Source: Candidatus Dojkabacteria bacterium UBA2022 (GTDB taxonomy: Bacteria > Patescibacteriota > Dojkabacteria > SC72). Taken from it: a stretch of DNA of 64,000 nt. Shown in pieces: positions 7,825 to 54,015 of the stretch. The notes below the pieces were generated by a model. It was not told where the DNA came from. It saw nothing but the letters and a program-made list of their open reading frames with translations, and did not search any database. A program made the position numbers and the translations under genes. The stretch spans positions 9,831 through 73,830 of the forward strand of contig DDBW01000014.1 in NCBI GenBank assembly GCA_002335495.1. Reading direction: 5' to 3'. Every line of letters starts with the position of its first letter. Position 1 is the stretch's first letter.

Positions 7825-7828
7825 TAGT

Positions 7829-9085: not shown

Positions 9086-9121
9086 GCTTTATATTCTATT
9101 AAATAGTAATATAATTTAGCT

Positions 9122-12069: not shown

Positions 12070-12122
12070 CCCAATATCAACAATCTCATTAAAAAACCAT
12101 CCTTAGATGGTATAATTACCAT

Positions 12123-12596
12123 ATGAAAATAATAACAGTAGAACAAGATGAAAAAACTCTAAGAAAGGTATCAAAAGATATCCCAATAGAAGAAATAAAC
12201 ACACCCCAATTCCATAAGTTCCTTGAAGACATGAAAGAAACCGCCTCCAACGCACCAATGCCCAAGGGATGGGAACCAGCAGGCCTTGCCGCCATACAAG
12301 TAGGGGAGGATAAGAAAGTATTCATAGCAATAGACATAGACACAGGAGAATTCAAAGAATACATTAACCCAAAGATTAAGGTAATAGGAGATAAAGAAAG
12401 CATAGACCTAGAAGGATGCCTCAGCATACCCAACACCACAGGATACGTAAAAAGACCAAAGAAAGTTAAAATAACATACCTCGACCGCTTCGGAGTATCC
12501 CACACTGAAAGACTCTCAGGCTTTAACGCCAAAATAGTACAACACGAAAACGACCACCTCCTTGGCATACTATTTACAGACAAACTAGAAAAGTAA
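12123..12596 (+). CDS. def: peptide deformylase
   Basis: Conserved PDF motifs GLAAIQVG, EGCLSIP and HENDHLLG. Confidence 0.85.
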   Translation: MKIITVEQDEKTLRKVSKDIPIEEINTPQFHKFLEDMKETASNAPMPKGWEPAGLAAIQVGEDKKVFIAIDIDTGEFKEYINPKIKVIGDKESIDLEGCLSIPNTTGYVKRPKKVKITYLDRFGVSHTERLSGFNAKIVQHENDHLLGILFTDKLEK

Positions 12597-14230: not shown

Positions 14231-14235
14231 GCTAA

Positions 14236-15477
14236 TTGCCCACTGTGAAAAAATATATACTACTAACAATTACGATCTTAACAGTAATTCTCTCACCTAT
14301 ATCCCAAACCTTTGCAGCCACCCAGAACGAAATCAATACAACCCTAACCACCCTTGAAGATGAAAGAAGAGCCAAACTTGAGAAAGAACTAGGACTCACC
14401 ATCCCACAGATCTCAGACAACCCAAACCACATAATCACCTTTAGAGACCCTTCCAAAGAAGGAGTAGGGGTTAAACTGGAAATAGACGGACAAGGCTTTA
14501 AGAAAGTCTCAAGCCCATACACCCTCCCATCCCTTGGAATAGGAAAGCACATCCTCACCTTCAAGTTCACAGACTCAGAAGAGACCGAACAAACCCTTGA
14601 AGAAACTATCACCATTATCCCACGCCCTGCAATAATAGATGCCCCCGAAAAAATTACAACCACAGAACTATCCTTCAAAGGAACAGCCCTTGCCGCATCA
14701 ATCGTTGACCTATACCTCTCATCGGGTACTAAACACTATAAAGCAGCCCCAGATGTAAATAACGATGGAAGCTGGAGCTATACCTTCAAAGGAGAATTTG
14801 AATACGGCATATACAATATTGTTGCCGTTACAAGGAAGAACGGATATACCAGTAACTTCTCTGAAACAATTGTCTTCGAACTCACAAAAGAAGGAGCCGG
14901 ATCAAATAACAATAGCAATAGTGTAAAACCAATTTCCTTCAGCTTCGACAGCCTTCTTAAAAGCGACCCTATGACAACAATTAAGAATAACCTCGACCTG
15001 CTATACCTAACATTGGGATCCCTGCTCACCGGTATTATATTAACAGCCATATTTACCAAAATAGCAGATGGAAAACAGCATAAAAACCTCGAGGGAGTCT
15101 TCTTAAAGAAGTACGCTCAAAAAACGGAGAAGCCATCAAAAGAGGAGAAGAAAGAATCCAAGCCAATGACCCTCAGAGAAAAGTTTGAGCAAGCGGGACT
15201 TGCAAAAGAAGAGAAGAGTGTAGAGAAAAAAGACGAAGAAAAAAAGGAAGAAGAAAAGAAAGATGAGAAAAAGGAAAGTAAAAAAGAGGAGAAAGAGAAG
15301 AAGGATGAAAAGAAAACTCTTAGCAAAGAAGAATTTTTAGAGGAATTCAAAGAACAGGATCCCGACAATGAAAGAGGTAAGGAGCCTGCAAAAGAAGAAG
15401 AGAAGAAGAAAGAGAAACCATCTAGCCTAATGAACAGTATTAAAATATCTCTAACCTCCAAGCCAAGCAAGAAGTAG
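14236..15477 (+). CDS. secreted/membrane-anchored surface protein with a beta-rich (Ig-like) ectodomain, a C-terminal TM helix and a Lys/Glu-rich cytoplasmic tail
   Basis: Signal peptide, beta-strand-rich ectodomain, TM helix LLYLTLGSLLTGIILTAIF, then an EKKEEEKKDEKK low-complexity tail. The start is either TTG at 14236 or GTG at 14245. Confidence 0.5.
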   Translation: MPTVKKYILLTITILTVILSPISQTFAATQNEINTTLTTLEDERRAKLEKELGLTIPQISDNPNHIITFRDPSKEGVGVKLEIDGQGFKKVSSPYTLPSLGIGKHILTFKFTDSEETEQTLEETITIIPRPAIIDAPEKITTTELSFKGTALAASIVDLYLSSGTKHYKAAPDVNNDGSWSYTFKGEFEYGIYNIVAVTRKNGYTSNFSETIVFELTKEGAGSNNNSNSVKPISFSFDSLLKSDPMTTIKNNLDLLYLTLGSLLTGIILTAIFTKIADGKQHKNLEGVFLKKYAQKTEKPSKEEKKESKPMTLREKFEQAGLAKEEKSVEKKDEEKKEEEKKDEKKESKKEEKEKKDEKKTLSKEEFLEEFKEQDPDNERGKEPAKEEEKKKEKPSSLMNSIKISLTSKPSKK

Positions 15478-16230
15478 ATGAAAAAGGTAATAGTAACCGG
15501 AGATGACGGATATAAAGCAGTAGGACTTAAAGTTCTTGCACAAGCCCTTAAAAATGATTTTGAAGTTACAATCATTGCCACTAAAGAACAGAAAAGTGGA
15601 GCAGGTGGCAGTGTAAAAGCCTATGGAGAGAAAGAGTGGGGGATGGAGATAGTGGATGGCATCAAGTCATACTGGGTAGACGGAACCCCAGCAGACTCTA
15701 TGGAGTTTGCCCAAGGAGTATTCCCAAACGGCGTAGACTATTTGATCTCCGGAATTAACTGGGGAGAGAACATAGGCCTAAGTACTTTCACAGCATCAGG
15801 AACAGGAGGCGCCGCCCTTAGAGGATACTCCTTAGGAATTGCTCCAAAAGCCATTATAATGAGCTGGCTTAAACCTAACTCAGAGAACGATTGGTGGGAG
15901 GATAAAAGTTCTGAAGAAGTAGAACCATTCCTACAATACCCAGGTGGAAGCGCACTACACGTAGTAAAGGAAGCAATTAAAAACTCTTTTTGGAATAAAG
16001 ACATAGTAAATGTAAATTTCCCGCCAAACCCAACCCAGGATTATAAAGTAACCAAACTCCTAAAACACCTACCGGACTTCTATAAATACCCCGTAATAAT
16101 AAAAGAGAATACCTATGAGTACGACAAAGAAGTATTTGCATACACACAACAAACCAAAGAAAATACAACCCTTGATGTAGGAGCCATCCTATCAGGATAT
16201 ATCTCAATAACCCCTGTAACGATAGAATAA
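15478..16230 (+). CDS. surE: 5'/3'-nucleotidase SurE family
   Basis: SurE motifs VTGDDGY, GTPADS, SGINWGENIG...SGTGGAA, and C-terminal GYISITPV. Confidence 0.8.
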   Translation: MKKVIVTGDDGYKAVGLKVLAQALKNDFEVTIIATKEQKSGAGGSVKAYGEKEWGMEIVDGIKSYWVDGTPADSMEFAQGVFPNGVDYLISGINWGENIGLSTFTASGTGGAALRGYSLGIAPKAIIMSWLKPNSENDWWEDKSSEEVEPFLQYPGGSALHVVKEAIKNSFWNKDIVNVNFPPNPTQDYKVTKLLKHLPDFYKYPVIIKENTYEYDKEVFAYTQQTKENTTLDVGAILSGYISITPVTIE

Positions 16231-16282
16231 TCTGCAATTCCACCTTAACAAGTAACAAATAACGATCGCTTATTAGTAACAT

Positions 16283-17137
16283 TTACCATTTCTTACTCAT
16301 CAATGATAAGGAGTCATCTTTAGCTAGCAAAACTTTCATTTGCCTTATAGCTATATCATTTAATCTAATCAAACGTTCTGATTGTGTTAGACCAAGGTTA
16401 ATATATTCTGCATTAAGAGATTCCAAGTTAGTAAGACATACAAGCTGTTGAAGGGTGGCATGATCTCTTATATTCCCATTAAGACCAGGGTTTAGCTCTC
16501 GCCATTCTTTTGCAGTTATTCCAAATAACGCAACATTTAAAACGTCTGCTTCATTCGCATAAACAAAATTTTCTCTTAGTTTTCCAATTTTCTTCGGAAC
16601 AATATTATGTTTTATTGCGTCCGTATGGATGCGATAGTTAACCTTAGACAAAATACGTTTAACATTCCATTCCAAATTTTCAGTTTCATTTTGCTTCAAT
16701 AGCTGATATTCTCGAATCAAGAATAGCTTAAATTCTGCTGATACCCAACTTGCAAATTCAAAAGCAATATCCTTGTGAGCAAAAGTTCCAGATCCATACC
16801 TACCTCTACTGGTTTTTAAACCAATAGCATTTGTAATAGTCACCCACCTTTCAGGAGATAATGTAAAAGAATTTAATCCAGACTCTTTTCTAAAGGAGTC
16901 GAATTCGACCCCTTTAAAATTTATGTTATTTATTGATTCCCACAAGCCAAGGAATTCTATTGTATTCCTTGTTCTTAGCCAATTTTTAACAACGTCTTTT
17001 GGTTCATCTGGGTTTTTATATCTAGCGATATCAGTGAGGGAAATATATTCATCTTTAATATTTATATCAATATCCTTAACTATAATCTTGTTTTTCATCT
17101 TAGTATCCCCTTTACAATTTAGTTTATGAAATAACAT
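16283..17137 (-). CDS. KilA-N domain-containing protein (phage/virus-derived DNA-binding protein family)
   Basis: N-terminal roughly 110 aa fit a KilA-N/APSES-like pattern (ISLTDIARYKNPDEPKDVVKNWLRTRNTIEFLGLWE). It lies immediately beside tRNA-Leu(CAG). Confidence 0.6.
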   Translation of the reverse strand: MLFHKLNCKGDTKMKNKIIVKDIDINIKDEYISLTDIARYKNPDEPKDVVKNWLRTRNTIEFLGLWESINNINFKGVEFDSFRKESGLNSFTLSPERWVTITNAIGLKTSRGRYGSGTFAHKDIAFEFASWVSAEFKLFLIREYQLLKQNETENLEWNVKRILSKVNYRIHTDAIKHNIVPKKIGKLRENFVYANEADVLNVALFGITAKEWRELNPGLNGNIRDHATLQQLVCLTNLESLNAEYINLGLTQSERLIRLNDIAIRQMKVLLAKDDSLSLMSKKW

Positions 17138-40662: not shown

Positions 40663-42678
40663 ATGCCACTGAGATTAGATGATCCAATAACCCAAGTGCC
40701 ACTAGTTGGCACCGCTAAAAGTATCCTCCTTGAAAACCTCGGAATTAATACTGTAAAAGATCTTCTATTTCACATCCCATCAAGATACAAGGACACCTCC
40801 AGTATAATAACAATTGACCAATTAAAAATCGAAAGAGAGGGCACAATTGTAGGAACCCTCGAGTCAATCAAAAATATTTACACCCGATCTAGAAAAGTTC
40901 TAACAAGAGCCACTATATCGGACGGTACTGGTAGAATAGAAGCCGTATGGTTTAATCAAAGGTATCTTGCTAAATCCCTAAACCCAAACGAACAGTACCT
41001 CTTCGAAGGCAAACTCAATCCCAAACAAACACGCCCACAACTAGTCAGCCCAACCTACGAAAAATACTATCAAGGAGTAGTAAATCAAAAGCACGTAGGA
41101 AGAATAACCCCCTTCTATCCAGAAACAGCAAACATATCTTCCAAATGGCTAAGGGCTAGATTAGATGATGTATTCAAGAACTTAGAAGATACTATCCTTG
41201 ACCCCATCCCGCAGGATATCCTCAAAGAAAAACAGCTGCCAACTATAAATGAAGCAATTAACCTCGTCCACAATCCACAAGAAGTTGAGGATGTTAACAT
41301 AGGCAGAGGCCGGCTTGAGTTTGACGAACTCCTGCGCGTAGCCTTACAAATAGAAAGCGAAGTCCACCAACAAACCGGAAAACAAGCAAATATAATCCCT
41401 GTGGATTTTGACACTGTTTATGAATTTATATCTCAGCTACCGTACAGTTTAACTGATGACCAAGTAATGGCAATAAGAGATATTATAAAGGATATAAACA
41501 GTACAAACCCAATGCGCAGACTCCTCAACGGAGATGTAGGAAGCGGTAAAACGGTAGTGGCGGCAGCAGTAATGTACGGAGTATTTAAAAGCGGACTAAC
41601 ATCATTATTAATGGCACCAACCTCAATTCTAGCCCGCCAGCATTTTAAAACCATAAGTAATATGCTTGAGCCTTTGGGAGTAAAGGTTCAACTACGAACA
41701 AGTTCTGAACAGATTGAAAACAGCAAAGATCCTCAGGTTATAATTGGAACCCATGCTCTATTATTTGAAAAAGAACTTCCAGATAATATCGCGCTCGTAG
41801 TAGTAGATGAGCAGCACAGATTCGGAGTGAATCAAAGGAAAGAGCTTTTAGAAAAGGACACCAACTCATTAATCCCACACTATCTTAGTATGACAGCAAC
41901 TCCAATTCCTCGAACCCTAACCAATATTCTATTTGGAGATATGTCTGTATCATTCATCAACCAACTTCCCCTCAATAGGCTACCGATCAAAACACACTAT
42001 GTTCCAAAAGCCAAACGAGACTCCTGCTACACCTGGGTAAAAGAGCGGATTATTGAGACCAACTACAAGGAACAAGCTTTCATTATATTTCCCCTCGTAG
42101 ACGAATCTGAAAAGTTAGAAGCAAAGTCTGCAAAGAAAGAGTTTGAAACCCTCACATCAACTGTGTTCAAAGAAATCAAGGCAGCACTACTACACGGACA
42201 GATGAAGGAGAAAGAGAAGGACGAAATTCTAAAAGATTTTAAAGAAGGTAAATACTCTATATTAATTGCCACCCCAGTAGTAGAAGTGGGAATAGATATT
42301 CCAAACGCAACAATGATGATAATTGAAAACGCTGAAAGGTTTGGATTAGCCCAATTACACCAATTTAGAGGAAGAGTTGGAAGAAACTCCCTGCAGTCAT
42401 ACTGCTACCTTTTGGCTGGTGACAGCGTTGATGAAGAGAATGGAGTGGAAAGACTTATGTACTTCAGCCAACATAATTCGGGATTTGATGTTGCCGAATA
42501 CGACCTTCAAACCAGAGGGCCAGGAGAAGTATTCGGAGTTAAACAATCCGGTATTCCAAAATTTAAGGTTGCCACTATAACAAACATAAAACTCCTGTTA
42601 CAATGCAGAGAAGTAGCAAAAGAGCTAATTAAACAAGGATACAATGTAGATAAAATACTCGACAACCTATTTAGATGA
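40663..42678 (+). CDS. recG: ATP-dependent DNA helicase RecG
   Basis: Wedge/OB N-terminal domain, helicase motifs GDVGSGKT and VVDEQHRFG, and a 671-aa length. Confidence 0.85.
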   Translation: MPLRLDDPITQVPLVGTAKSILLENLGINTVKDLLFHIPSRYKDTSSIITIDQLKIEREGTIVGTLESIKNIYTRSRKVLTRATISDGTGRIEAVWFNQRYLAKSLNPNEQYLFEGKLNPKQTRPQLVSPTYEKYYQGVVNQKHVGRITPFYPETANISSKWLRARLDDVFKNLEDTILDPIPQDILKEKQLPTINEAINLVHNPQEVEDVNIGRGRLEFDELLRVALQIESEVHQQTGKQANIIPVDFDTVYEFISQLPYSLTDDQVMAIRDIIKDINSTNPMRRLLNGDVGSGKTVVAAAVMYGVFKSGLTSLLMAPTSILARQHFKTISNMLEPLGVKVQLRTSSEQIENSKDPQVIIGTHALLFEKELPDNIALVVVDEQHRFGVNQRKELLEKDTNSLIPHYLSMTATPIPRTLTNILFGDMSVSFINQLPLNRLPIKTHYVPKAKRDSCYTWVKERIIETNYKEQAFIIFPLVDESEKLEAKSAKKEFETLTSTVFKEIKAALLHGQMKEKEKDEILKDFKEGKYSILIATPVVEVGIDIPNATMMIIENAERFGLAQLHQFRGRVGRNSLQSYCYLLAGDSVDEENGVERLMYFSQHNSGFDVAEYDLQTRGPGEVFGVKQSGIPKFKVATITNIKLLLQCREVAKELIKQGYNVDKILDNLFR

Positions 42679-43133
42679 AAATATATGTAATTCTAGACAA
42701 TATACGCTCAGCATATAATGTGGGAAGTATATTTAGGACTTCAGATGGAGCAGGGGATTGCGAGATATTAATATGCGGCATATCCCCAACTCCTGAACAT
42801 AACAAGGTAGCAAAAACCTCTTTAGGTTCTACTGATTCCGTCCCTTGGAAATACTTTAAAACAACGGAGGAAGCTATTGAACACGTTAAGAGCATGAATA
42901 TACCTATATACAGCATAGAAATCACTCCAGAGGCACAGGAATATACTCAAGTTAAATATCCCCAAGATATTGCAATTGTACTAGGGCACGAAACAGAAGG
43001 AGTAGGTAGAAGAATCCTAGAAATAAGTGATAAGCATATCTATGTACCAATGCGGGGAAAAAAGGAATCCTTGAATGTTGCAACCGTTGCAGGTATTGTT
43101 ATATATGAAATAATTAAATGTAAAAACGTATGA
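42675..43133 (+). CDS. SpoU/TrmH-family RNA 2'-O-methyltransferase (TrmL-like)
   Basis: SPOUT pattern: RSAYNVGSIFRT, IVLGHETEG, and ESLNVATVAGIVIYE. Confidence 0.7.
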   Translation: MKIYVILDNIRSAYNVGSIFRTSDGAGDCEILICGISPTPEHNKVAKTSLGSTDSVPWKYFKTTEEAIEHVKSMNIPIYSIEITPEAQEYTQVKYPQDIAIVLGHETEGVGRRILEISDKHIYVPMRGKKESLNVATVAGIVIYEIIKCKNV

Positions 43134-44185
43134 TAAAGATTGAATTAGTTGAGGATAAAAAGGCGTGGGATAACATAGCATCCTCTTCATCCCCGTCTAC
43201 AGTTCTTCAATCTTGGGATTGGGGGGACTTTCAAGTTAGCTTGGGAAGAAAAATATGGAGAATTGGAGTGTATGATGATGATGTATTAGTAGGAGTTGCC
43301 CTGGCTCAGCTAATCCCAACAAAACTGAGAACCCACATATATGTTTCCAATGGTCCTGTCATTAGAAGAGAGAAAGTCAAAGAGTATATGCCCAAACTAA
43401 TAGGATATCTGAAAGCATTAGCAATTCAAGAGAAAGTTCACTTTGTAAGAATAGACCCCCTCTATAAAGACGATGAATTAATAAATAAAGAGCTATCGGA
43501 TATGGGAATGAAGCGATCGCAAACCTTCACTCAATCTGAAAACAAATGGCTATTAGATGTAACAGAAGAGGAAGAATCTTTACTTAGAAATATGCGAAAA
43601 AGCACTCGATATGAGATTAAGAAAGCTGAAAGAGAAGGTGTAACAGTGTATTCGTCAGACAAAATTGAAGACTACAAGCAGTTCGAAAAACTATTTCTGA
43701 TTACAGCTAAAAGACAGAACTTCATTCCCCATCCAATCACATACTATGAGAAACAGTTCACAACTCTAACCAAAGGAGGGATATACAAGGCATATTGTGC
43801 AGTCAGAAACGGAGAAGTGCTAGCAACCGCACTCATTTCCTTTTACGGGGATACTGCCTCGTATCTACACGCATCAAGCCTAAGCAATCCTGAAGTGAAT
43901 AAATATATGGCACCACCTGCCTTAGTATGGCAAGCTATCAAAGATACGAAAGCGAAGGGGATGAAGTATTTTGACTTCTGGGGGATTGCCCTAACTGATG
44001 ATCCTAAACACCCTTGGGCTGGATTCACACGTTTTAAAAAAGGGTTTGGAGGTTTTCTTTTCAAAGTAGTACGCTCATACGACATTCCAACTTCACCAAG
44101 ATACCCTTTGATAGCTCTTATGGATGCAACGCGAGAGAGCTGGGGAATCTGGTACTACAAACTTCTCAAACTCTTAAAAAGATAG
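43130..44185 (+). CDS. FemAB family peptidoglycan interpeptide-bridge aminoacyltransferase
   Basis: FemABX/GNAT-like duplicated fold pattern (ISFYGDTASYLHASS, KYFDFWGI). The 351-aa length fits. Confidence 0.65.
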   Translation: MIKIELVEDKKAWDNIASSSSPSTVLQSWDWGDFQVSLGRKIWRIGVYDDDVLVGVALAQLIPTKLRTHIYVSNGPVIRREKVKEYMPKLIGYLKALAIQEKVHFVRIDPLYKDDELINKELSDMGMKRSQTFTQSENKWLLDVTEEEESLLRNMRKSTRYEIKKAEREGVTVYSSDKIEDYKQFEKLFLITAKRQNFIPHPITYYEKQFTTLTKGGIYKAYCAVRNGEVLATALISFYGDTASYLHASSLSNPEVNKYMAPPALVWQAIKDTKAKGMKYFDFWGIALTDDPKHPWAGFTRFKKGFGGFLFKVVRSYDIPTSPRYPLIALMDATRESWGIWYYKLLKLLKR

Positions 44186-44237
44186 CTTGTAGCAATATAT
44201 TTTTGACATCCACGGATGCGCCATATATTATGGTAAT

Positions 44238-47200
44238 ATGGCGTTTTCTGAAAGAGTACTAAAGCGAAAATTCAAGAAAAATATCCTCGTAATATCCTTC
44301 ATTCTGGTAGCAATACTGCCTGTAATTGCCTTCAACATTATCAAGATTATCAATAACCCAGTACCCAGATTTGTAGAAACTCCTGAAAGCTCCAAATATA
44401 TTCTTGAAGTATCCAACCAAAACTATAAAGCAAAGATAGGAGGGAAAGATGGCAATACAGCGTCGGTTCAATTCATAAACCCTGATAAGAAAGATATAAC
44501 CTTCTCCTACATTTCTCAAGACAAGAAAAAACCAACGGTAGAAAGTGACAGTAGAAAAGTAACTTTCAAAAATGTTGATAAAAATATTGATATTGAATAT
44601 ATACCTTTAGCTAACGGTTTAAAGGAAAACATCATCCTCACAGATAAGCCTAAGTCAAACTACTACTACTTTGCAACAGATATAAAGGAGGCCATTGTAA
44701 AGAAGCACTACAAAGGAGAAGGAGTTCCTGCTTTTTACACAGAGAAAGGTGAATACCTTTTCAATATAGAGCCTGGATATGCAATAGATGCAAGAGGGAA
44801 ACGAACGGACGATGTGAAAATAGATGTAATCAAATCCGAGGGGAAACACTACATAAGAGTTAATGTAGATGAAAAATGGTTAAAGTCAGAAAACAGAGCC
44901 TTCCCAATTAAAGTTGACCCAACAATCGTATACGATACAACATCTGAATTTGCCAACGGAGTATTTAACAGAGCAAGAGATACAGGATCCGGAGCCAATC
45001 CAGTAATAGAGACCTCATATCAAGAACTCAATACTGACACACATACAGCAGGATTATGGCATATGAATGAAAGTTCAGGAAACATTCAAGACGCATCCGG
45101 CAACGGTAATATTGGTACCCCAACCGGAACAACAGTAGTAACCGGAATCGTTTCAAACGCAAGAGACTTCAACGGAACCTCCGACTTCATAAACCTGGGT
45201 AATGCTTCGATACTAAATATCACTGGTGACATAAGCATTGAGGCATGGGTAAAGGTAGATTCGTATGCATCAGGATTAGCAGTACTAACATGGGCAAACG
45301 GTGCATATACACTATTCCCATACCATATAGTAATAAATACCACGGGTACTCTTCGATTTAACTCATCAACAACCGGATCTTTTGATAGCACAGGGATAGT
45401 ACCACTAGGGGTATGGACTCATATAGCAGTAACAACAGAAGGTAAACTTCTTAGCTTCTATATAAACGGACAATTAGACACTACTCACCAACTTCCATCA
45501 GCGACAAGAAGCGCCGGAGATGGCTATCTTTCCTTAAGCAGAGCCTCAACACAGTACTTTGATGGAAGTATTGATGAAGTAAGAATCTCTGACAGAGCAA
45601 GAACTAAAGAAGAAATCCTCCAATCATATAACAAATCGGCGTACTCCGTGTACACAAGTGAGGTAATTGATATCGGAAGCGCAGTAGTAACATGGAACAA
45701 CCTCACATGGACAGAGCAAGGGGTACTAACGGGAGGAGCAGAGACCCTTTCAAATACAGCAAATTTGGTTGCACAATGGAATCTCAATGAAACAAGTGGA
45801 ACAACAGCAGCTAACAATGCGGGTTCCTGCGGAGCAAGCTGTAACGGTACACTAGTTAACTTTACAAATACTTCGGGACAAGACACGACGCCAATCAGCG
45901 GCTGGAGTAATAAGGAAGCAAGATGGGGAAATGGAGGAATTATGCTTGACGGGGCAGATGATTACATCAACATACCCGACCCTACAAATGGTAGCTTAGA
46001 TTTTGGGACATCAAGCCTCACATTGTCGACATGGATAAAGGCTACGAGTGATAATACAATTGGAAGATGGATTTTATCTAAAACACTAACAACATCTACA
46101 ACGATGTATTTCATTGGTCATCATACCGATGGTACTATTAGATGGAGAGCTAACGATGGAACTAACGCCTTTGACTTATACTCAAATGTAAGAATTTTGG
46201 ATAGTAAGTGGCACAACATTGTGGCAGTCATTGATAAAAGCAATAATACCGCAAGACTTTATATCGATGGAATACTGACAGGATCAACAAGTATATCTGG
46301 AAGTATGAATCTAGCATCTACCTTTGACTTCACTGTAGGAGCGTTCAAAGATACAACAGGAGCAACTAGCAACCACTTCGGAGGAGTGATTGATTCAATA
46401 AGCATATACTCTAGAGCATTAGAGACTAATGAAATACTCTCAAACTACCAAAGCAGTAACTTAGAGATACAAACAAGAGTAGGAAGTGATACCACCCCAA
46501 ATGATGGGAGCTGGGAAACATGGAGACCGAACACAGTGGAGAATTCATTAACAGCCATGGACAATCAGTTTTTATACCCAACAAATGATTCAGGCCAAAC
46601 CCTATACTGGCCATTAGACGAAACTGCTAACAATACATGTACAGGAGGAGTAAACGATGTATGTGATAAAACAGGCTCTAACGATGCAGAAATACTCGGA
46701 ACAACAATTAGAAGCGGAGTATATGGAAGATCAAGAGGATTCCCTGGCAACACGATTGTTGACTTTATCTATGAACCCAGCTACACAGCAATACCAACAA
46801 CAAGTATCTCTGTAGAGTTTTGGATAAAAACACGAGGAAATCTAGATGGAATTTTTTCATACGCCTCAACAGCAGGTGATAACGATTTCCTTATATACGA
46901 CAGTTCTAATCTACAGATATTCCGAAATACCACACCATTAGTTTCGGGGGTTTCAGTTAACGATAATCAATGGCACCATGTGGTAGCCACTTGGAGAAGT
47001 TCCGACGGTCAGACCCAAATATATAAGGATGGAAAACTTGCCTATACAGGAACAACTCAGACAGGTACAAGCATAACAACAGGAGGAGTACTTATGATTG
47101 GACAAGAACAGGATTCGATAGGAGGAGGACTCTCTGCAGCTCAAGCCTTTAAAGGAACTATAGACGAGATCAAAGTATTCAACACTGTACTCTCGGCATC

Positions 47201-50200
47201 GACCGTATACACAAACTATTTACTTGGTTCAAGAGATATAGCATACACTAATCGCAAATCAGATAGCATCATTAAAACAGAAGGAAGCTATAGCCAGGAA
47301 ATAAAAAACACTTCTATACAAAACGACTCAAACACAATATCTGCATGGAGCTTTGAAGAAACCAGCGGAACCGGAGCGTTCATAAAAGATATCACCGGAA
47401 ACAATTCAATTACACCTACAGGATCTTCTTTAACAAGAGGAGTAATAGGGAATGCCCGATTATTCAGTACTTCAGATAACTTTGCGACAACACTGAACGG
47501 GTTTGATACTACTCAGAATAATATAACGGTTTCATTCTGGGCGAGGCCAACGATGACTGGCCCCATCAACACGACCTTTTTAGCGGCAACCCCAAATGAT
47601 ACAGCCAATAGGTTCTTAATACACTTCCCATGGAGTGATGGAAATATGTACTGGGATTATGGAGACATTAATACTGTAGGAAGACTATCGGCAGCATTTA
47701 ATTCATCATGGTACGGAGAGTGGGCCCACTGGGCGTTTGTATCCGAACAAGGAGTAGGGCAAAAAATATTTAGAAACGGGACCCTAATTGCAAGCGACGC
47801 GACAGCTGGGACGTTTACAAAGCAGGCAAAAACACTCTCCTTTCCAAGCAGTTGGCAGGGAGTGTTGGATGAGGTTGAAATCAGTGGAATAGCTAGAACT
47901 CAAAAAGAGATTAACGATGCCTACAGACAAGGAAGTGATAACTACATAAACCTTCCAGTTTCTAGTACCAATATTACCTCGGATAGAAACCTTAAATTTG
48001 ATATAGCTGCAGATACAGCAGGGCAATATTTAGAGGCAATTATAGGAGAATCTGCATTCGCAAACTACCAAACAGATAGCAATACTGTAGGGTTATGGCA
48101 CTTTGACGAGACAATAACCGACCCAGCATACTTTCAGGACACAAGCGGTAACAACAACAAGATAAATTACACTCCATTCACAGCAACCGGAGGTACAATA
48201 ACAACGTCTGGCATATATACAATACATACATTCACCACCAGTGGAACTTTTACCCCTAACAAGCCAGGTGTAGTAGATGCATTGGTAGTTGGCGGCGGAG
48301 GAGGAGGTGGTGGTGGTACATTAAGCGCATGGGGAGGAGGAGGTGGTGGTGGTGGCGTAGTTAAGACTACTACAAACTTAGTAATATCAGCAAATACTTC
48401 CGTTACAGTGGGAAATGGAGGAACTGCTGGAGCTCAAGACAATCCTGGAGGAAACGGAGGTAGTTCAGTATTTAGCACACTAACCTCCCTCGGAGGAGGA
48501 GGTGGTGGTGGTGGTGGTGGTGCTAACGCTACAGGTAGAAGCAATGGAACAGGAGGTGGGGCAGCCGCAGGAGGTACTGGAGTATCTGGTGGAACAAGTA
48601 TAGATGGGAGCGGATTCGCTGGAGGATCAGGTTCAACATGTAACACACCTTGTAGATCAGGAGGAGGTGGTGGTGCAGGCGCAGCTGGTACAAGTGGAGC
48701 AGTTGGGCCAGGTAACGGAGGAATTGGAATTCTAAATTCATTAACAGGTACTTCAACATATTATGGAGGAGGAGGTGGTGGTTCAGGAGGAACTCAGGGA
48801 GGAGTGGCTGGAACCGGAGGACAAGGGGGAGGCGCAAACGGAATAAACTTTGGAACAGCTGGAGCAGGGACGGCCAACACAGGAGGAGGAGGAGGAGGTG
48901 GTGGATACCAAGGATCGGGAGGAGCAGGTGGAAGCGGAATAGTAATTGTTAGATACGAGAATGGACAATCGACAACAGTAGGAGAAGGTCGCCTTGGAAA
49001 AGGAAGATACTTCAACGGACTAAGCGAATACTTACAAACTACGAATAATTATAACTTCACATCCGAAAGCTTCACTATTTCAATGTGGGTAAAACCATCT
49101 GATATCTCCAATAGCCCAGTTATGGTAAGTAACGGATCATGGCAGGTAGATGGATATTACATGCATATCCTAAGCAACGGTGGAGTCCAGTTTATAACAA
49201 GCCAAGCTGGAGTGATACAAGTTTCAAGCAGTAAAGCTGGATCAGTAAAAGTTAATCAGTGGAATCACATTGCGGTTGTAAGAAGTGGAAGTAGCGTAAG
49301 AACATATGTAAATGGGATGGATAAAACTACAGTGGTAGGGACGCATGTAAATCCCACATCCACAACGACACCGTTTAGAATAGGAAACTATAGTTCAGGG
49401 ACTTTGTATATGTATAAAGGATATCTAGACGAACTCCGAGTTGATCGTGTAGCGAGAACTGCAGAGGAGATAAGACAGGCATTCAACTTTGATAGTAGAA
49501 CATACGATATTGAGATTGATTTTGCAGCAAAGTTAGATAACTCAAATGTAATCAATAGCATTGCCGATACATCATTTATTGTAGATGCTACATACCATGG
49601 AGCACACCAGAAAGGAGACAACTTATACGTAGGTGACAAGATTATTGTTAGAGAGAATGTTAACGGTATAAGGTATATGGCAACCGGAACGGTAACCTCT
49701 GTAACAACATCAACAGGACTGACCTCGGTGGCCTCATGGGATGTGGGATCAACATTTCCACCGTCGGGCTATACCCAAAATGCAGGACTTTTTAAATGGC
49801 AAACTGAATATTGGAAAATCCAAGAAACAAATCTATCATCTCACTTAGATGCTGTAAGCCTAATCACAATAAGAGTAACAGATGGCAAGATTGGACGAGA
49901 ATTATGGATAGACAACATCGGCAGTACAGGTTCATACCTAACAAATCCTTCCGGATCAACAATTACATCATCCACCGGGAACCGGTACTTACAATATAGA
50001 GTAATACAAAATTCTAATAGCAGAGACCTAAGCAGTAAGCTAAGTCTTCTTAGCGTTGATTACACATCAAATGTGGCCCCCAATACCCCAACCTTAGATT
50101 CTCCATCCAATGTAACAGCCAGCCAGCCCCTTCGCCCAGTTCTAAGAACAACAGCAACAGATGTCGACCTTGACTACATCAGATACCGCATTCAATTGTG

Positions 50201-52694
50201 TGAAGATATTTTCATGACAAGAAACTGCCAAACCTTCGATCAGACTTCGTCTCAAACTGGGTGGAGTGGACAGAACACCCAAACAAATACAGCGTACACA
50301 AACGGCTCACAAGCCACATACACTCTACAATCCGATTTAGAAGAAGGTAAAACATACTATTGGAGATCATACGCAATCGATCCAGGTGGAATGAACCAAT
50401 GGAGTACCACTCAATCAGAACCATTTGCATTTGCGGTAAATGCCAGACCTCGACCAAATCAAAACGTATACAAACAACACTTTATAGCAAGGCGCGAGAG
50501 CTCATACCCTTCATCAACCACAGGATGGGCGAGCATAAACGGAGCAGCAGAGTCAGGTACTACAGGTTCGCCTAACGGATGGATTGCAGGATCAAACTTC
50601 ACGGTAGGAGATAGATATTTGATAATGGTATGGGGAAGCCATCAAGCAGATAATATTAGTGCAAAGAGCGGACTAAGAGTTAAATATGGACCAACTCCAT
50701 TCACGGAATCCCAAGCAATAGAGACAAGTAATCAAAGTGCCACCTCTTATAAAACTCCATACTTCTGGTTTACAGTATGGACCGCTCAAAATGCTAACCT
50801 TGAAGTCGAGACATACTGGAGCGGAAATGCTGGGACAGAATCTAGAGTTGAGGACATAACCTTAGTAGCAATAAATGCAGAAGATCTAATTGCAAATGGA
50901 GATCTACACTACAATATTTCAACAACGGGAGGAACATTAGACACCACCTACTCACCAAAAGCATCAGCAGCCTTTACGACAACAGAAGCCGCTCCATGGT
51001 GGATAATGGGATATAGCCAGGCCGACATTGTAGATTTAGATTCTGATAAATATCAGACAAGATTAAATCTAATTAGTACAGTTACATTCCCTGTTTATAA
51101 TCAGACTGAAACTCCATTTGGAGTTACCTCTATCTCAGGTAAAGATGCAGTCGATACCCCTGTCTACGGAACAGGATATGTACAGGAGATAGCAACTGGG
51201 ATAGATGTCGATGCCAACATTGAAATTAAAGAATCAGCCGCCAACCAACAGTGGGCAGCAGCAGGGGTTCTAGCATTGAACCTAAAAGCTTTCGACAGCT
51301 ATAGTTATGCGACAACAACAAATAACACAACTCTAAGTACGCCATCGGCATGGATAGAGCAAGCACAAATTAACCCATTAAACAGATATGCTTCCAATTA
51401 TCTAATTGCTTCAGGTGCAGTAATCGATGATGCAGGGACAAAAACAATTTCTAGAATACAAAACTCTGAAATAAACGTAACCGACGATGTCGGAGGATGG
51501 CGACATAATACAGGAGATATAATGCCAGTCACACTTGCAGATGCGTTCCCCAACCTAACAGGGGGCATTAAGAATATTGAGATGGACTCGCAAAGTACCT
51601 TGGCAGGAACAGCAACAGTGGACGATAGATGGATCGTTGCACTGTCGCTTGAGGAGCCTGCTATCGGACCAACTTTAAATACCCCAGCAGCAGGAGCAAC
51701 GAATCAAAGTGTTCGAACCCAGTTCAAAGTAGTGGCACACGACCCTGATAGCGACTCCCTTATGTATAAAATTGATCTGTGCTCTAACTTAGCAATGACA
51801 ACTGATTGTCAAACCTTTAACCAACAATCCTCACAAACAGGATGGACAGGGCAAAATGCATTCTCAAACCAAAGATACGCATCTGGAACGGAAGGTACCT
51901 ACACCCTGCAATCCGACCTCAACCCAAACACCACCTACTACTGGAGAGCCTATGTGATTGATCCAAGCGGGACAAACGTCTTCACCGCAGCTAGCGCAGT
52001 AAGATCTTTCACAACCTCGCAAAGCCCATTCCAACCATCAGCGATAGAAATTGAAGCAAGTACCAATCCAACCGGAGTGACAGACTTGACCCCAGAAATA
52101 AGCGCGCTACATACGGATCCGGAAAGTGACAGTGCAAACTATATTAGAATACAGGTAAGTACCGTCAGTAATTTTGCTTCAACAGTATGGGATACAGGTA
52201 AGCTAATCATGACAACAACGGCTCACGGCGTTCGCACTCCAACCCTCAGTTATAGTGGTTCAACACTATACTTAAACGGGCAGCTATACTACGTTCGAAT
52301 CAAACTGTGGGATGTAAAAGGAGCAGAAAGTGCATGGTCCAATACTGCTACATTCCAAATGCACAAATTAGAGCCAGCTAACGGATGCCATATAACAGAT
52401 ACTGACCCAACGGACACAACCATAATCATAAAATGGAACGATAACAGCGCTCTCGAAGATGGGTATAGGGTACAAAGAAGCGTTAACGGAGGTGCCTTCG
52501 CCAACTTGATAACTAAGCCAGCCAACTCAACCTTCCACACCGATACAATTTCAGCAGGTAATACATACAGATATAGAATTGCTACAACCCACTCTTCATA
52601 CTTCGCAGCAGACTGTACAACCTCTACTGCAGACGTGAAAGTTGGAGAAATTAGGATAGGGGGAATTAAGATAGGAGGGATAAAGATAGATTAA
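44238..52694 (+). CDS. giant (2818 aa) cell-surface protein: N-terminal signal-anchor, at least five LamG/concanavalin-A-like lectin domains, a Gly-rich low-complexity domain, and duplicated FN3-like modules
   Basis: Single N-terminal TM. LamG-like modules repeatedly end in an xDExRISxRARTxEEI-type strand (IDEVRISDRARTKEEI, LDEVEISGIARTQKEI, LDELRVDRVARTAEEI). A GGGGGGGG-rich region lies at about 48.29-48.95 kb. Paired TYYWRxYxIDP modules at about 50.1 and 51.7 kb. A C-terminal FN3-like segment (YRVQRSVNGGAF...YRYRIAT). Confidence 0.8.
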   Translation: MAFSERVLKRKFKKNILVISFILVAILPVIAFNIIKIINNPVPRFVETPESSKYILEVSNQNYKAKIGGKDGNTASVQFINPDKKDITFSYISQDKKKPTVESDSRKVTFKNVDKNIDIEYIPLANGLKENIILTDKPKSNYYYFATDIKEAIVKKHYKGEGVPAFYTEKGEYLFNIEPGYAIDARGKRTDDVKIDVIKSEGKHYIRVNVDEKWLKSENRAFPIKVDPTIVYDTTSEFANGVFNRARDTGSGANPVIETSYQELNTDTHTAGLWHMNESSGNIQDASGNGNIGTPTGTTVVTGIVSNARDFNGTSDFINLGNASILNITGDISIEAWVKVDSYASGLAVLTWANGAYTLFPYHIVINTTGTLRFNSSTTGSFDSTGIVPLGVWTHIAVTTEGKLLSFYINGQLDTTHQLPSATRSAGDGYLSLSRASTQYFDGSIDEVRISDRARTKEEILQSYNKSAYSVYTSEVIDIGSAVVTWNNLTWTEQGVLTGGAETLSNTANLVAQWNLNETSGTTAANNAGSCGASCNGTLVNFTNTSGQDTTPISGWSNKEARWGNGGIMLDGADDYINIPDPTNGSLDFGTSSLTLSTWIKATSDNTIGRWILSKTLTTSTTMYFIGHHTDGTIRWRANDGTNAFDLYSNVRILDSKWHNIVAVIDKSNNTARLYIDGILTGSTSISGSMNLASTFDFTVGAFKDTTGATSNHFGGVIDSISIYSRALETNEILSNYQSSNLEIQTRVGSDTTPNDGSWETWRPNTVENSLTAMDNQFLYPTNDSGQTLYWPLDETANNTCTGGVNDVCDKTGSNDAEILGTTIRSGVYGRSRGFPGNTIVDFIYEPSYTAIPTTSISVEFWIKTRGNLDGIFSYASTAGDNDFLIYDSSNLQIFRNTTPLVSGVSVNDNQWHHVVATWRSSDGQTQIYKDGKLAYTGTTQTGTSITTGGVLMIGQEQDSIGGGLSAAQAFKGTIDEIKVFNTVLSASTVYTNYLLGSRDIAYTNRKSDSIIKTEGSYSQEIKNTSIQNDSNTISAWSFEETSGTGAFIKDITGNNSITPTGSSLTRGVIGNARLFSTSDNFATTLNGFDTTQNNITVSFWARPTMTGPINTTFLAATPNDTANRFLIHFPWSDGNMYWDYGDINTVGRLSAAFNSSWYGEWAHWAFVSEQGVGQKIFRNGTLIASDATAGTFTKQAKTLSFPSSWQGVLDEVEISGIARTQKEINDAYRQGSDNYINLPVSSTNITSDRNLKFDIAADTAGQYLEAIIGESAFANYQTDSNTVGLWHFDETITDPAYFQDTSGNNNKINYTPFTATGGTITTSGIYTIHTFTTSGTFTPNKPGVVDALVVGGGGGGGGGTLSAWGGGGGGGGVVKTTTNLVISANTSVTVGNGGTAGAQDNPGGNGGSSVFSTLTSLGGGGGGGGGGANATGRSNGTGGGAAAGGTGVSGGTSIDGSGFAGGSGSTCNTPCRSGGGGGAGAAGTSGAVGPGNGGIGILNSLTGTSTYYGGGGGGSGGTQGGVAGTGGQGGGANGINFGTAGAGTANTGGGGGGGGYQGSGGAGGSGIVIVRYENGQSTTVGEGRLGKGRYFNGLSEYLQTTNNYNFTSESFTISMWVKPSDISNSPVMVSNGSWQVDGYYMHILSNGGVQFITSQAGVIQVSSSKAGSVKVNQWNHIAVVRSGSSVRTYVNGMDKTTVVGTHVNPTSTTTPFRIGNYSSGTLYMYKGYLDELRVDRVARTAEEIRQAFNFDSRTYDIEIDFAAKLDNSNVINSIADTSFIVDATYHGAHQKGDNLYVGDKIIVRENVNGIRYMATGTVTSVTTSTGLTSVASWDVGSTFPPSGYTQNAGLFKWQTEYWKIQETNLSSHLDAVSLITIRVTDGKIGRELWIDNIGSTGSYLTNPSGSTITSSTGNRYLQYRVIQNSNSRDLSSKLSLLSVDYTSNVAPNTPTLDSPSNVTASQPLRPVLRTTATDVDLDYIRYRIQLCEDIFMTRNCQTFDQTSSQTGWSGQNTQTNTAYTNGSQATYTLQSDLEEGKTYYWRSYAIDPGGMNQWSTTQSEPFAFAVNARPRPNQNVYKQHFIARRESSYPSSTTGWASINGAAESGTTGSPNGWIAGSNFTVGDRYLIMVWGSHQADNISAKSGLRVKYGPTPFTESQAIETSNQSATSYKTPYFWFTVWTAQNANLEVETYWSGNAGTESRVEDITLVAINAEDLIANGDLHYNISTTGGTLDTTYSPKASAAFTTTEAAPWWIMGYSQADIVDLDSDKYQTRLNLISTVTFPVYNQTETPFGVTSISGKDAVDTPVYGTGYVQEIATGIDVDANIEIKESAANQQWAAAGVLALNLKAFDSYSYATTTNNTTLSTPSAWIEQAQINPLNRYASNYLIASGAVIDDAGTKTISRIQNSEINVTDDVGGWRHNTGDIMPVTLADAFPNLTGGIKNIEMDSQSTLAGTATVDDRWIVALSLEEPAIGPTLNTPAAGATNQSVRTQFKVVAHDPDSDSLMYKIDLCSNLAMTTDCQTFNQQSSQTGWTGQNAFSNQRYASGTEGTYTLQSDLNPNTTYYWRAYVIDPSGTNVFTAASAVRSFTTSQSPFQPSAIEIEASTNPTGVTDLTPEISALHTDPESDSANYIRIQVSTVSNFASTVWDTGKLIMTTTAHGVRTPTLSYSGSTLYLNGQLYYVRIKLWDVKGAESAWSNTATFQMHKLEPANGCHITDTDPTDTTIIIKWNDNSALEDGYRVQRSVNGGAFANLITKPANSTFHTDTISAGNTYRYRIATTHSSYFAADCTTSTADVKVGEIRIGGIKIGGIKID
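48291..48950 (+). repeat. Gly-codon (GGN) low-complexity DNA repeat region inside the giant surface-protein gene
   Basis: Runs of ggaggaggtggtggtggt. These explain the Pro-rich antisense ORFs in the track. Confidence 0.7.
52648..52691 (+). repeat. three imperfect 15-bp tandem repeats encoding (IR/K)IGG at the extreme C-terminus of the giant protein
   Basis: attaggataggggga / attaagataggaggg / ataaagatagat, then the stop codon. Confidence 0.6.
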
Positions 52695-52722
52695 TTTATC
52701 ATATTAATGTAAAATCTATACT

Positions 52723-53454
52723 ATGAGCTTAAAAATTGACTCGTTCAAAAAACTTAGAAAAGAGAAAAATAAGTGGAAAACCGAAACATGGGAGGAGTAT
52801 GAAGATCGAGAGAAAGCCTTCCTAAAAGAGCGACTACTCAGCAAAGAGCCCACTATTAAAGGGCAGGTGCGAATAACTGCAGGAAGTGCAAAAAATGTAC
52901 AAATAGATATTCCTCGAACCACAAGACCTCTTACCGATAGAATGAAAGTCAGAGTTTTTGACATATTAAACACAGATATTGTTAATAAAGAAGTCCTTGA
53001 CCTATACGCCGGTTCAGGAAGCTTTGGACTAGAGGCGCTCTCAAGAGGAGCAAAAAACGCAACCTTTGTGGATGCTGCCAAACAGGCTTTCGGAGTACTC
53101 GAAAATAATGCTAAAGCAACAGGTTTTTCATCATCATCAGAAGTAATTAAGATGAAGGTAGAAGAGTACCTATTCAAAAAAACTACCGAGGGCAATGTCG
53201 TATTTGACATCATCTTCATGGATCCTCCCTACAAACTTTTCAATAAGAAGAAAATGTTTAATATTGAAAAAGTACTCAACGATGCAAGCAAACTTCTTCC
53301 GGCTGTACAAAAGATAAAAGGGAGATTCAAGGGAGCAATAATCGTTAAACACCCCAGGCGCTACCCAATCGAGAAGTTAAAGCTCGATAATATAAAAGCC
53401 TATGAGACTTTTGAATTCGGACTAAACTGCATAACAATATACATTGTAAAATAG
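52723..53454 (+). CDS. rsmD: 16S rRNA (guanine966-N2)-methyltransferase RsmD-like
   Basis: Motifs RITAGSAKN...RPLTDRMKVRVFDIL, LDLYAGSGSFGLEALSRGA and DPPY. Confidence 0.75.
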   Translation: MSLKIDSFKKLRKEKNKWKTETWEEYEDREKAFLKERLLSKEPTIKGQVRITAGSAKNVQIDIPRTTRPLTDRMKVRVFDILNTDIVNKEVLDLYAGSGSFGLEALSRGAKNATFVDAAKQAFGVLENNAKATGFSSSSEVIKMKVEEYLFKKTTEGNVVFDIIFMDPPYKLFNKKKMFNIEKVLNDASKLLPAVQKIKGRFKGAIIVKHPRRYPIEKLKLDNIKAYETFEFGLNCITIYIVK

Positions 53455-53459
53455 TAACA

Positions 53460-53864
53460 GTGAGTACTAAGTCGAACTACCTTACATCAATTCGAATAAG
53501 TTTCTTCATTGTGTATGCATGGTTTGGGCTTTTAAAAGTATTTGATGTCAGCGGGGCCACAAACCTAGTACAAGACCTCCTCAATTTTATGCTTCCAGGA
53601 TTTCCAGAAGACCTCTTTGTATTTCTTTTTGGACTCTTCGAAGTACTTATAGGGATTATATTTCTATACAAACCCTTCACTAAACTTGCGATATTTTTTG
53701 CAACCGTACACTTAATGATGTGTGCCTTCCCACTATTTGTTCTCCCATACTACACATGGAACGGATCAATGATTCTAACTCAGGTAGGACAGTACATAGT
53801 AAAAAACATATTTATCGTGAGTGCCCTTATAGGATTATGGGAAACGGAGGTTATGGGTAAATAG
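53460..53864 (+). CDS. small 4-TM membrane protein (DoxX-like?)
   Basis: Hydrophobic 134-aa ORF. Confidence 0.4.
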   Translation: MSTKSNYLTSIRISFFIVYAWFGLLKVFDVSGATNLVQDLLNFMLPGFPEDLFVFLFGLFEVLIGIIFLYKPFTKLAIFFATVHLMMCAFPLFVLPYYTWNGSMILTQVGQYIVKNIFIVSALIGLWETEVMGK

Positions 53865-54015
53865 CCATTGCAAATTAATTATATTCGCTATAAAATCAAG
53901 TACATGTACAAAATATTCGGTAAAACCAAAGAAAACGTGCTTAAGATTGTCTTCCCAACATCCCTGTGATGTTATTATTTTCAATTTTCCATATTAAATT
54001 ATATTTAAACCTTTA

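Follow-up and report, generated by a model that had tools for sequence, protein, structure and literature searches.

We have analysed a giant gene for a laminin G (LamG)-domain surface protein on the forward strand of contig DDBW01000014.1, which belongs to the candidate phyla radiation (CPR) bacterium Candidatus Dojkabacteria bacterium UBA2022. The window, that is, the whole stretch of DNA under analysis, comprises 64 kb. An initial annotation, made by a model from the letters alone, had placed here an 8.5-kb open reading frame (ORF) of 2818 codons that takes 13 percent of the window, and had ascribed it to a small-genome bacterium. Both statements hold, since the ORF is uninterrupted and occupies 13.2% of the window, and the organism is a CPR bacterium. 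In the protein, about 17 beta-rich modules follow downstream of a lone N-terminal hydrophobic segment (Table 1). Two of these modules are the most informative, namely a glycine-rich module and a 404-aa triple jelly roll, the latter having been missed by the initial annotation.

The exact protein is recorded at NCBI as HRI06126.1, 'LamG domain-containing protein [Candidatus Dojkabacteria bacterium]', with its neighbours annotated from the same metagenome-assembled genome (MAG), and an identical protein is recorded on 5 contigs. Two of the contigs have been fetched, one from an ENA bioreactor-sludge assembly and one from the NCBI MAG, and their DNA is 100% identical to the window; these ENA and NCBI copies may stem from the same reads. 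In addition, the Logan assembly of a separate sample, ERR3281024, contains a syntenic and intact allele of 2840 aa, which is 91% identical. As this allele was found intact at the same locus in an independent sample, the long frame is not an artefact.

The giant gene lies in a housekeeping backbone, with the order TyrRS, RelA/SpoT, RecG, SpoU, FemAB, giant gene, RsmD-like methyltransferase, ThrRS, IF3 and PheS. This backbone is conserved in three genomes, and the GC content of the giant gene is similar to that of its surroundings. The window also contains a peptidoglycan and division cluster, including FtsW, MurG, MraY, penicillin-binding proteins and FemAB. The FemAB-family gene reported immediately upstream is indeed there (43130..44185). 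Its position next to the giant gene is retained in a relative with 54% identity, but not at the locus of a more distant relative, and a functional tie between the two genes has been rejected on this ground. Judging from the gene orders, the adjacency is a matter of lineage synteny with no functional link.

Directly before the giant gene we have observed a promoter-like element (Table 1). Its -10 and the ATG are 6 nt apart, and no Shine-Dalgarno sequence precedes the gene, so a leaderless transcript is probable. In the 91% and the 54% relatives, the -35 and -10 boxes, the distance between them and the place of the ATG are all kept, and the remaining spacer has diverged. That is, an element of the form TTGACA-17-TA(T/A)TAT stands before the gene in three genomes (window 44203-44240; 9966-10003 of L001, the ERR3281024 locus; about 5770-5807 of L088, the locus of the 54% relative). 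This conservation suggests that the giant gene has a dedicated promoter and may be read from a leaderless mRNA.

Table 1. Features of the giant gene, in window coordinates (aa, residues of the encoded protein)
Feature	Position	Strand	Remarks
Promoter-like element TTGACA-17 nt-TATTAT	44203..44231	+	best sigma-70 match (11/12) in 42500-54000
Whole gene, giant LamG-domain surface protein (NCBI HRI06126.1)	44238..52694	+	2818 codons and stop, ATG start
Only hydrophobic segment, aa 14-38	44277..44351	+	Kyte-Doolittle maximum 2.86; Lys/Arg-rich N-terminus before it
Conserved N-terminal domain, aa 41-235, ending DPTIVYDT	44358..44942	+	shared with homologs; no Pfam match
LamG1, aa 312-460	45171..45617	+	Laminin_G_3, Pfam E 2e-28
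LamG2, aa 571-733, strain-variable cassette	45948..46436	+	Laminin_G_3, Pfam E 1e-25
LamG3, pentraxin-like, aa 848-994	46779..47219	+	Laminin_G_3; Pentaxin PF00354, E 6e-25
LamG4, aa 1086-1226	47493..47915	+	Laminin_G_3, Pfam E 8e-13
Gly-rich module, aa 1318-1575	48189..48962	+	beta-sandwich and array of Gly runs; PF21722 (Gly_rich_2)
LamG5, aa 1596-1745	49023..49472	+	Laminin_G_3, Pfam E 2e-28
Conserved 'stalk' domain, aa 1756-1944	49503..50069	+	family hallmark; no Pfam family
FN3/Ig-like module A, aa 1945-2067, Cys pair 1988/1997	50070..50438	+	identity to module B
Triple jelly-roll module, aa 2068-2471	50439..51650	+	404 aa, between the FN3-like duplicates; AlphaFold2 model
FN3/Ig-like module B, aa 2472-2593, Cys pair 2515/2524	51651..52016	+	identity to module A
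Ig_Rha78A_N-like beta-sandwich, aa 2594-2708	52017..52361	+	Pfam E 1e-12
Putative C-terminal FN3-like module, aa 2709-2800, Cys pair 2717/2793	52362..52637	+	sequence pattern and Cys positions; without own Pfam match
C-terminal tail ...GEIRIGGIKIGGIKID	52638..52691	+	alternating hydrophobic motif from 15-nt tandem repeat

Module architecture and fold matches

Pfam has found five Laminin_G_3 stretches with a combined E of 1e-104, which agrees with the five LamG modules of the initial annotation; overall, the searches with Pfam and with profiles do support the lectin-like and fibronectin type III (FN3) folds that it had read from the translation. Among the PHROGs, the LamG modules also match phrog_8510, a family annotated as 'virion structural protein' (E 4e-41). 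Pfam gives weaker matches to a clostridial toxin, to a 3-keto-disaccharide hydrolase (E 2e-6) and to a sialidase N-terminal domain (E 5e-4); all of them fall under the LamG stretches and are not counted as domains. Likewise, an assignment to the TafC family of fimbrial proteins (NF052521) has been rejected, as its 112.6 bits are summed over the LamG stretches against a cut-off of 410 and reflect the LamG fold only.

Among the five, LamG3 is pentraxin-like. It scores 88.4 bits on Pfam Pentaxin, where the cut-off is 25, matches the neuronal pentraxins, including neuronal pentraxin-2, with E 1e-18, and is 30% identical to human C-reactive protein (CRP) over 142 columns of a BLASTP alignment. In CRP structures, the calcium ligands are D60, N61, E138, Q139, D140, E147 and Q150. 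Six of these seven residues of the double-calcium site are identical in LamG3 (D60, N61, E138, Q139, D140 and Q150), and E147 is replaced by Ser. This conservation of the site implies that LamG3 may bind its ligand in a calcium-dependent way. In the Pfam score and in the double-calcium residues, LamG3 thus resembles the pentraxins, i.e., CRP, serum amyloid P component, the neuronal pentraxins and the C-terminal domain of PTX3. It differs from them in being one domain inside a giant bacterial protein, in lacking the Cys36-Cys97 disulfide of CRP and in the Ser at the place of E147. The pentraxin signature HxCx[ST]WxS is also absent from LamG3, where the aligned residues are H-V-V-A-T-W-R-S and contain no Cys. 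Oligomerisation of LamG3 into a ring is implausible in the context of the giant protein.

The 'poly-Gly domain' of the initial annotation is present as PF21722 (aa 1333-1574, Pfam E 3e-24 to 4e-22). Judging from its model and matches, it appears to be a folded, phage-type receptor-binding module, which is a point that the annotation had missed. Glycine makes up 43% of aa 1340-1560, with eight runs of at least three Gly, six of which reach at least four. The AlphaFold2 (AF2) model of the module has a mean predicted local distance difference test (pLDDT) of 92.6 and a predicted template modelling score (pTM) of 0.91. It contains a beta-sandwich together with about 150 residues of pLDDT above 90 to which DSSP assigns no helix and no strand. 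In the Foldseek search against the PDB, the top matches are the tail tip of mycobacteriophage Bxb1 (9d93_Qb) and the fibre protein gp24 of cyanophage Pam3 (7ypx, 7yfw), with probability 1.0, E 2e-5 to 8e-4 and template modelling (TM) scores of 0.43-0.50. The profile of the module finds Pam3 gp24 by sequence too (E 0.006). In addition, the module matches phrog_2295 with E 2e-44, and its relatives on IMG/VR viral contigs adjoin portal, tail-spike and virion structural genes. Alignment A1 holds 30 copies of the module from relatives of the giant protein.

The Gly array may form a polyglycine-II bundle. Subdomains of Bxb1 gp33 and gp29, as well as gp38 of Salmonella phage S16, have been described as polyproline-II-type bundles (PMC13243192), and it has been reported for phage tips that the Gly scaffold is conserved and the loops between the motifs are variable (PMC9608196). 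Like these tips (Pam3 gp24, S16 gp38, Bxb1 gp33/gp29), the module shows a beta-sandwich from which an array of GGGGxGG-type motifs emerges, and its scaffold is kept between strains with variable loops. Unlike them, it is internal in a cellular monomer, presumably membrane-tethered, that is encoded in a housekeeping context, and no chaperone gene lies alongside. The 'TG' (TNF-like and glycine-rich) domain of ALK/LTK, which is built on the same idea of a TNF-like sandwich plus polyglycine-II helices, is also in the Foldseek list. Its match is weak (E 0.16-4, TM about 0.2), and the phage tips are clearly closer to the module.

The 404-aa insert between the two FN3-like duplicates belongs to no family in the Pfam and PHROG scans, and specifically it shows no Pfam C1q or TNF sequence match. 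Its AF2 model is all-beta, with pLDDT 90.8 and pTM 0.92. According to Foldseek, the best whole-length matches in the PDB are two engineered trimers, a single-chain C1q globular head (5hzf) and a single-chain APRIL-BAFF-BAFF (4zch), both at TM 0.61-0.63, and single repeats of the insert match the receptor-binding domains of cyanophage tail fibres. Profile-profile comparison with hhalign detects an internal triplication with E 7e-7 and 1e-9. Among viral structures, the top match is the Caudovirales protein A0A6J5RA88, with 401 aa and from an uncultured tailed phage (TM 0.77/0.78, root-mean-square deviation 3.5 A, E 4e-21). Next in the ranking are proteins of giant viruses and a 'C1q domain-containing protein' of a phage (TM 0.68). 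The 'triple jelly roll' A223 of Sulfolobus turreted icosahedral virus (STIV) matches at a low TM of 0.19.

Considering the model, the matches to single-chain trimers, the internal repeats and the viral structure match together, aa 2068-2471 appears to be a module, shared with viruses, in which one natural chain forms a pseudo-trimer of TNF/C1q-like jelly rolls. As in the trimers of the TNF/C1q superfamily, its three jelly-roll sandwiches are packed with pseudo-threefold symmetry in the model. On the other hand, the heads of natural TNF and C1q are assembled from three separate chains, whereas the insert carries three diverged repeats in one chain.

An exhaustive HMMER search has given 172 relatives of the insert, some of which are modules of other giant proteins and many of which are standalone proteins of ~400-430 aa. 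Our domain-sharing counts by BLAST and by regular expression (regex) cover 120 listed relatives of the giant protein, and the triple jelly roll occurs only in the three closest of them (P0001-P0003). Within the standalone group P0131, P0133, P0149, P0153 and P0156, some proteins have a signal peptide and one has a PEP-CTERM-like tail; others of the group lack a signal peptide, and their common, conserved C-terminus reads ...MHHRKQ.GMS. The standalone relatives have no Pfam family, and PHROG gives one marginal match, for P0156. A tblastn search with P0156 against 50,697 phage records found nothing, and the gene contexts of two standalone relatives are ordinary chromosomal and uninformative. The profile A2 of the triple jelly roll returned only 16 unannotated proteins in a word-search, and the underlying alignment is too divergent for a pattern scan of viral contigs.

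As to the ends of the chain, no second hydrophobic segment comparable to aa 14-38 is found by Kyte-Doolittle in the rest of the protein. The single N-terminal anchor of the initial annotation thus stands as a segment, which may be either a signal-anchor or a cleaved Sec signal peptide. The protein has 12 Cys, which make six pairs, and five of the six are spaced 4-9 residues. The LPxTG, GGxGxD (repeats-in-toxin, RTX) and PEP-CTERM patterns give zero matches in the protein; sortase anchoring was rejected for want of LPxTG, and an RTX-like reading of the Gly-rich region for want of GGxGxD. Overall, the one hydrophobic segment, the six Cys pairs and the lack of these patterns support the predicted extracellular position of the lectin-like and FN3-like domains.

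The N-terminal domain is present in 91 of the 120 homologs by BLAST, in 61 of them at full length, and the stalk in 94, near full length in 91. A search of the PDB with the stalk profile (alignment A4) has found no relative. Proteins of Streptomyces, Kribbella and Kutzneria (loci L019, L021, L024, L039, L048 and others) match from within the N-terminal domain (query ~70-107) into the LamG region, and because these actinomycete proteins match there, the domain is not confined to CPR bacteria. The segments between the LamG modules at aa 467-540, 742-800 and 1234-1300 (45636-45857, 46461-46640 and 47937-48140) are well conserved as well and recur across the family, with the motifs ...YTSEVID..W..L.W.E.GV.TG.GET, LE.QTRVG....DG.W..W.P and ..YIN...SST.L......IAAD..G.YL...IGES. 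Small modules are one possible reading of these segments, strands of a discontinuous domain another.

Modules A and B are 50% identical to each other (E 2e-38), so the duplication of FN3-like modules seen by the initial annotation is real. Their profile matches the FN3 domains of neogenin, gp130 and titin with E 0.001-0.03, and family members of these modules match Ig_Rha78A_N, Pur_ac_phosph_N and fn3, which gives the FN3/immunoglobulin (Ig) assignment weak to moderate support. For the following Ig_Rha78A_N-like sandwich, a second Pfam figure is E 3e-11 at aa 2601-2711. The C-terminal tail contains 3.1 copies of a 15-nt tandem repeat (52644-52689), which codes for (G-G-I-K-I)-like units three times at the C-terminus. 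By a strict regex this tail motif occurs in 33 of the 120 homologs, with looser matches visibly more. Many homologs close with a related, alternating-hydrophobic tail of the form G-x-F-x-[FL]-x-G-[LIV]-x-[LM]-x-G-[LI]-x-[LI]-[ND], and another subgroup with ...QLMRHG.W......FWWV... Such tails in Patescibacteria may be uncharacterised C-terminal sorting or docking signals.

Relatives and strain variation

We have compared the gene, codon-aligned, with the syntenic 2840-aa allele of L001 (ERR3281024). Over the whole gene, the synonymous divergence pS is 0.45 and the non-synonymous divergence pN is 0.09. The pS of single blocks varies from 0.00 (aa 61-120, 1068-1127 and about 2069-2188) up to 0.7-0.9, and the flanking genes show a pN of 0.003-0.012 and a pS of 0.06-0.43. 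For LamG2, the identity to L001 drops to 20-58% at protein level with a pN of 0.4-0.6; actually, the DNA from 45858 to 46427 is not alignable by blastn, and its flanks are 90-100% identical. The Gly-rich module shows a pN of 0.2-0.4 between the strains. Here the columns of the scaffold and of the Gly runs are 85% identical, in comparison with 31% for the columns of the inter-run loops, where indels occur as well.

In the replaced blocks pS, too, has reached saturation, so the pattern reflects the replacement of modules by recombination and not a hypervariation by point mutations. That is, the alleles are recombination mosaics, in which LamG2 and the loops of the Gly-rich module have been replaced between strains. 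The same is observed in other members of the family. Between P0002 and P0003, one LamG is at 28-55% identity with flanks at ~90-100%, and between P0006 and P0008, two cassettes are at 26-46% and 32-64% in a background of 82-100%. These pairs indicate that cassette replacement is a family-wide feature. In two other close allele pairs, no replaced cassette was found.

With E <= 1e-10, the giant protein has 319 relatives, mostly of 1700-3900 aa and from Patescibacteria (named sources: Dojkabacteria/WS6, Amesbacteria, Gottesmanbacteria and Patescibacteria). Multi-LamG relatives exist also in DPANN (Woesearchaeota and Nanoarchaeota loci) and in other phyla, and a scan of genome contigs has returned mainly distant LamG proteins from many phyla. 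The giant multi-LamG proteins of CPR and DPANN (cf. the giant membrane proteins of Vampirococcus lugosii) come, like the present one, from uncultivated organisms with small genomes, are larger than 2000 aa and combine an N-terminal membrane segment, arrays of Laminin_G_3 and FN3/Ig spacers. The present protein exceeds 1500 aa with several Laminin_G_3, and has the N-terminal domain and the stalk followed by Cys-pair FN3/Ig-like modules. It is therefore a member of a class already known in CPR/DPANN and generically annotated in databases. Compared with this class nothing in it is categorically different, though its lineage adds the triple jelly roll and an own placement of the Gly-rich module. 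The latter lies between LamG4 and LamG5 here, and elsewhere or in several copies in other relatives; this variation in number and position points to domain shuffling.

In relatives, two or three giant paralogs can stand in tandem. The 54% relative has a second copy at the syntenic locus: a further giant LamG gene, P0010 (2547 aa), lies directly downstream (L088 5805-21911). Where the protein of the window has its triple jelly roll, P0010 has a different insert, which by eye resembles beta-propeller repeats. Three giant genes in tandem are seen in a more distant genome (L089 1283-23897).

Function and alternatives

How the ultra-small CPR bacteria recognise and attach to partner cells is largely unknown outside the type IV pili of Saccharibacteria. 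We propose, with a probability of about 0.68, that the gene encodes a giant, membrane-tethered adhesin with several lectin modules, or a fibre for host recognition, and that its binding modules are swapped in the manner of phage tail-fibre cassettes. In such a mechanism, the protein would be held by its N-terminus in the cytoplasmic membrane, from where the chain would project through the cell wall. The lectin, phage-type and C1q-like modules would bind glycans or other envelope components of the partner (host) cell, with the pentraxin-like LamG3 doing so in a calcium-dependent way. An exchange of cassettes, probably from paralogous giant genes or other strains, would then retune the binding specificity, much as mosaicism of tail fibres does in phages. 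The tandem giant paralogs would be plausible cassette donors. The literature lists a 'concanavalin and LamG protein' among the presumed surface features for host attachment in CPR/DPANN, reports LamG proteins in CPR phages, and considers it likely that Vampirococcus attaches by its giant membrane proteins, in both cases of attachment as a hypothesis.

Several points weigh against this proposal. Dojkabacteria are uncultivated, and the evidence on the giant protein is computational. The segment at aa 14-38 could be a cleaved signal peptide, in which case another tether would be needed or the protein would be secreted. The phage tip is the distal end of a trimeric fibre, whereas the Gly-rich module is internal between LamG4 and LamG5, and due to this position it may work differently from the phage tips. 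In addition, its polyglycine-II nature is deduced from composition, from the lack of DSSP helix or strand and from fold matches with TM only 0.43-0.50. Silent donor cassettes were searched for in the window and in L001, and none was found. Finally, as the pS of the flanking genes is variable too, the recombination is genome-wide and not specific to this gene.

Alternatively, the protein could be a structural component of the envelope, e.g., S-layer-like or part of a sheath or fibre matrix, which builds the surface with no specific recognition of a partner. Its giant size, its beta-rich repetitive architecture and the conservation of the N-terminal and stalk domains across the family would suit such a role, as would the similarity of LamG1 to an S-layer-domain protein in the PDB (4qvs, E 1e-6) and the strong dedicated promoter-like site amid housekeeping and cell-wall genes. 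We consider it unlikely, because no S-layer homology (SLH) or other known domain for S-layer anchoring or self-assembly is found in the protein, and because modules of ligand-binding type are swapped between near-identical strains, as is expected of specificity determinants but not of lattice proteins; the retained pentraxin calcium/ligand site and the modules of phage receptor-binding type argue in the same direction. Somewhat less probable still is a surface protein for nutrient capture or polysaccharide processing, in which the concanavalin-A-like modules, as carbohydrate-binding modules or cryptic glycosidases, would help to feed a cell with a poor metabolism. Laminin_G_3 does belong to the lectin/glucanase superfamily, and besides the weak hydrolase and sialidase matches mentioned above, faint Glyco_hydro_130 matches appear in some relatives. 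However, no family of catalytic domains is significant, the weak matches correspond to non-catalytic jelly-roll parts under LamG, and the phage-tip-like and C1q-like modules are recognition folds rather than enzymes.

The similarity to phage proteins could also mean that the gene stems from a prophage, as a domesticated tail-fibre gene or the remnant of one, or that its product is a surface decoy or receptor for phages. The PHROG matches of the Gly-rich and LamG modules, the Caudovirales matches of the triple jelly roll (TM 0.78) and the LamG proteins of CPR phages all favour such an origin. Yet we regard it as very improbable: the genes beside the giant gene include no further one for phage structure, an integrase or lysis, the locus is the housekeeping backbone conserved in three genomes with the giant gene at a GC content like its surroundings, and at least 61-91 cellular homologs have the N-terminal membrane segment, the N-terminal domain and the stalk in common with it. 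An assembly artefact, or a target diversified by a diversity-generating retroelement (DGR), both of which the initial annotation had raised, deserves hardly any credit. The identical DNA of the separate ENA and NCBI assemblies and the intact allele of another sample contradict the former. As for the latter, no direct or inverted repeat resembling a template/variable repeat pair exists in the 64 kb, and no reverse transcriptase was found among the large ORFs scanned in this one window, some ORFs, mostly <250 aa, being left out of the scan. A DGR encoded elsewhere in the genome might act in trans, but nothing resembling a variable repeat is present here. The initial annotation had itself judged the gene not to be a DGR target, and we agree.

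The gene provides a concrete candidate for partner recognition in CPR bacteria with clear parts, namely the pentraxin-like calcium site, the phage-type Gly-rich module with loops that differ between strains, and the compact, single-chain C1q/TNF-like module without a family name. From strain to strain, it is the binding modules that change and not the scaffold, which offers a culture-free handle for population genomics, i.e., the cassette allele against the co-occurring host taxa. For annotation, the label 'LamG domain-containing protein' hides at least two further types of modules shared with phage virion proteins. In the literature searched, we have found no description, for CPR surface proteins, of a Gly-rich module of phage-tip nature, of a C1q/TNF-like module in a single chain, of a retained calcium site of the pentraxin type or of a recurrent replacement of single modules.

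A further-reaching reading is that the choice of cells by a CPR episymbiont is set by a chromosomal, 'tail-fibre-like' array of phage-type receptor-binding modules, made up of the polyglycine tip, the TNF/C1q-like pseudo-trimer and the LamG lectins, whose cassettes are exchanged by recombination with paralogs or other strains, and that the triple jelly roll is an undescribed natural single-chain TNF/C1q trimer, with an own family shared with tailed phages and giant viruses. We hold this as a tentative idea that is rather doubtful at present. If it is true, the host range would evolve as in phages.

Other stretches of the window

At the start of the window, positions 1-11440 have a low GC of 0.32-0.34, in comparison with about 0.39 elsewhere. 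The genes in this block encode a type III-like restriction helicase-endonuclease (1818-4466), an AbiEii-like AAA ATPase (4472-5929), a DNA methylase (5947-7824), a Schlafen/AlbA_2 protein (7829-9085) and a serine recombinase (9697-11385), and the recombinase gene runs with its 3' end into a tRNA gene on the reverse strand (11367-11440). Judging from gene content and composition, the block looks like a mobile defence island integrated at the tRNA.

The composition is also odd at 12000-16300, with a GC of 0.41-0.42, an AT skew of up to 0.42 and a GC skew of -0.26. This stretch encodes a PGA_cap (CapA-like capsule synthesis) protein (12596-14230) and SurE, and a 413-aa protein without a Pfam family (14236-15477) lies beside the former. 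It is followed on the reverse strand by the gene of a KilA-N protein (16283-17137).

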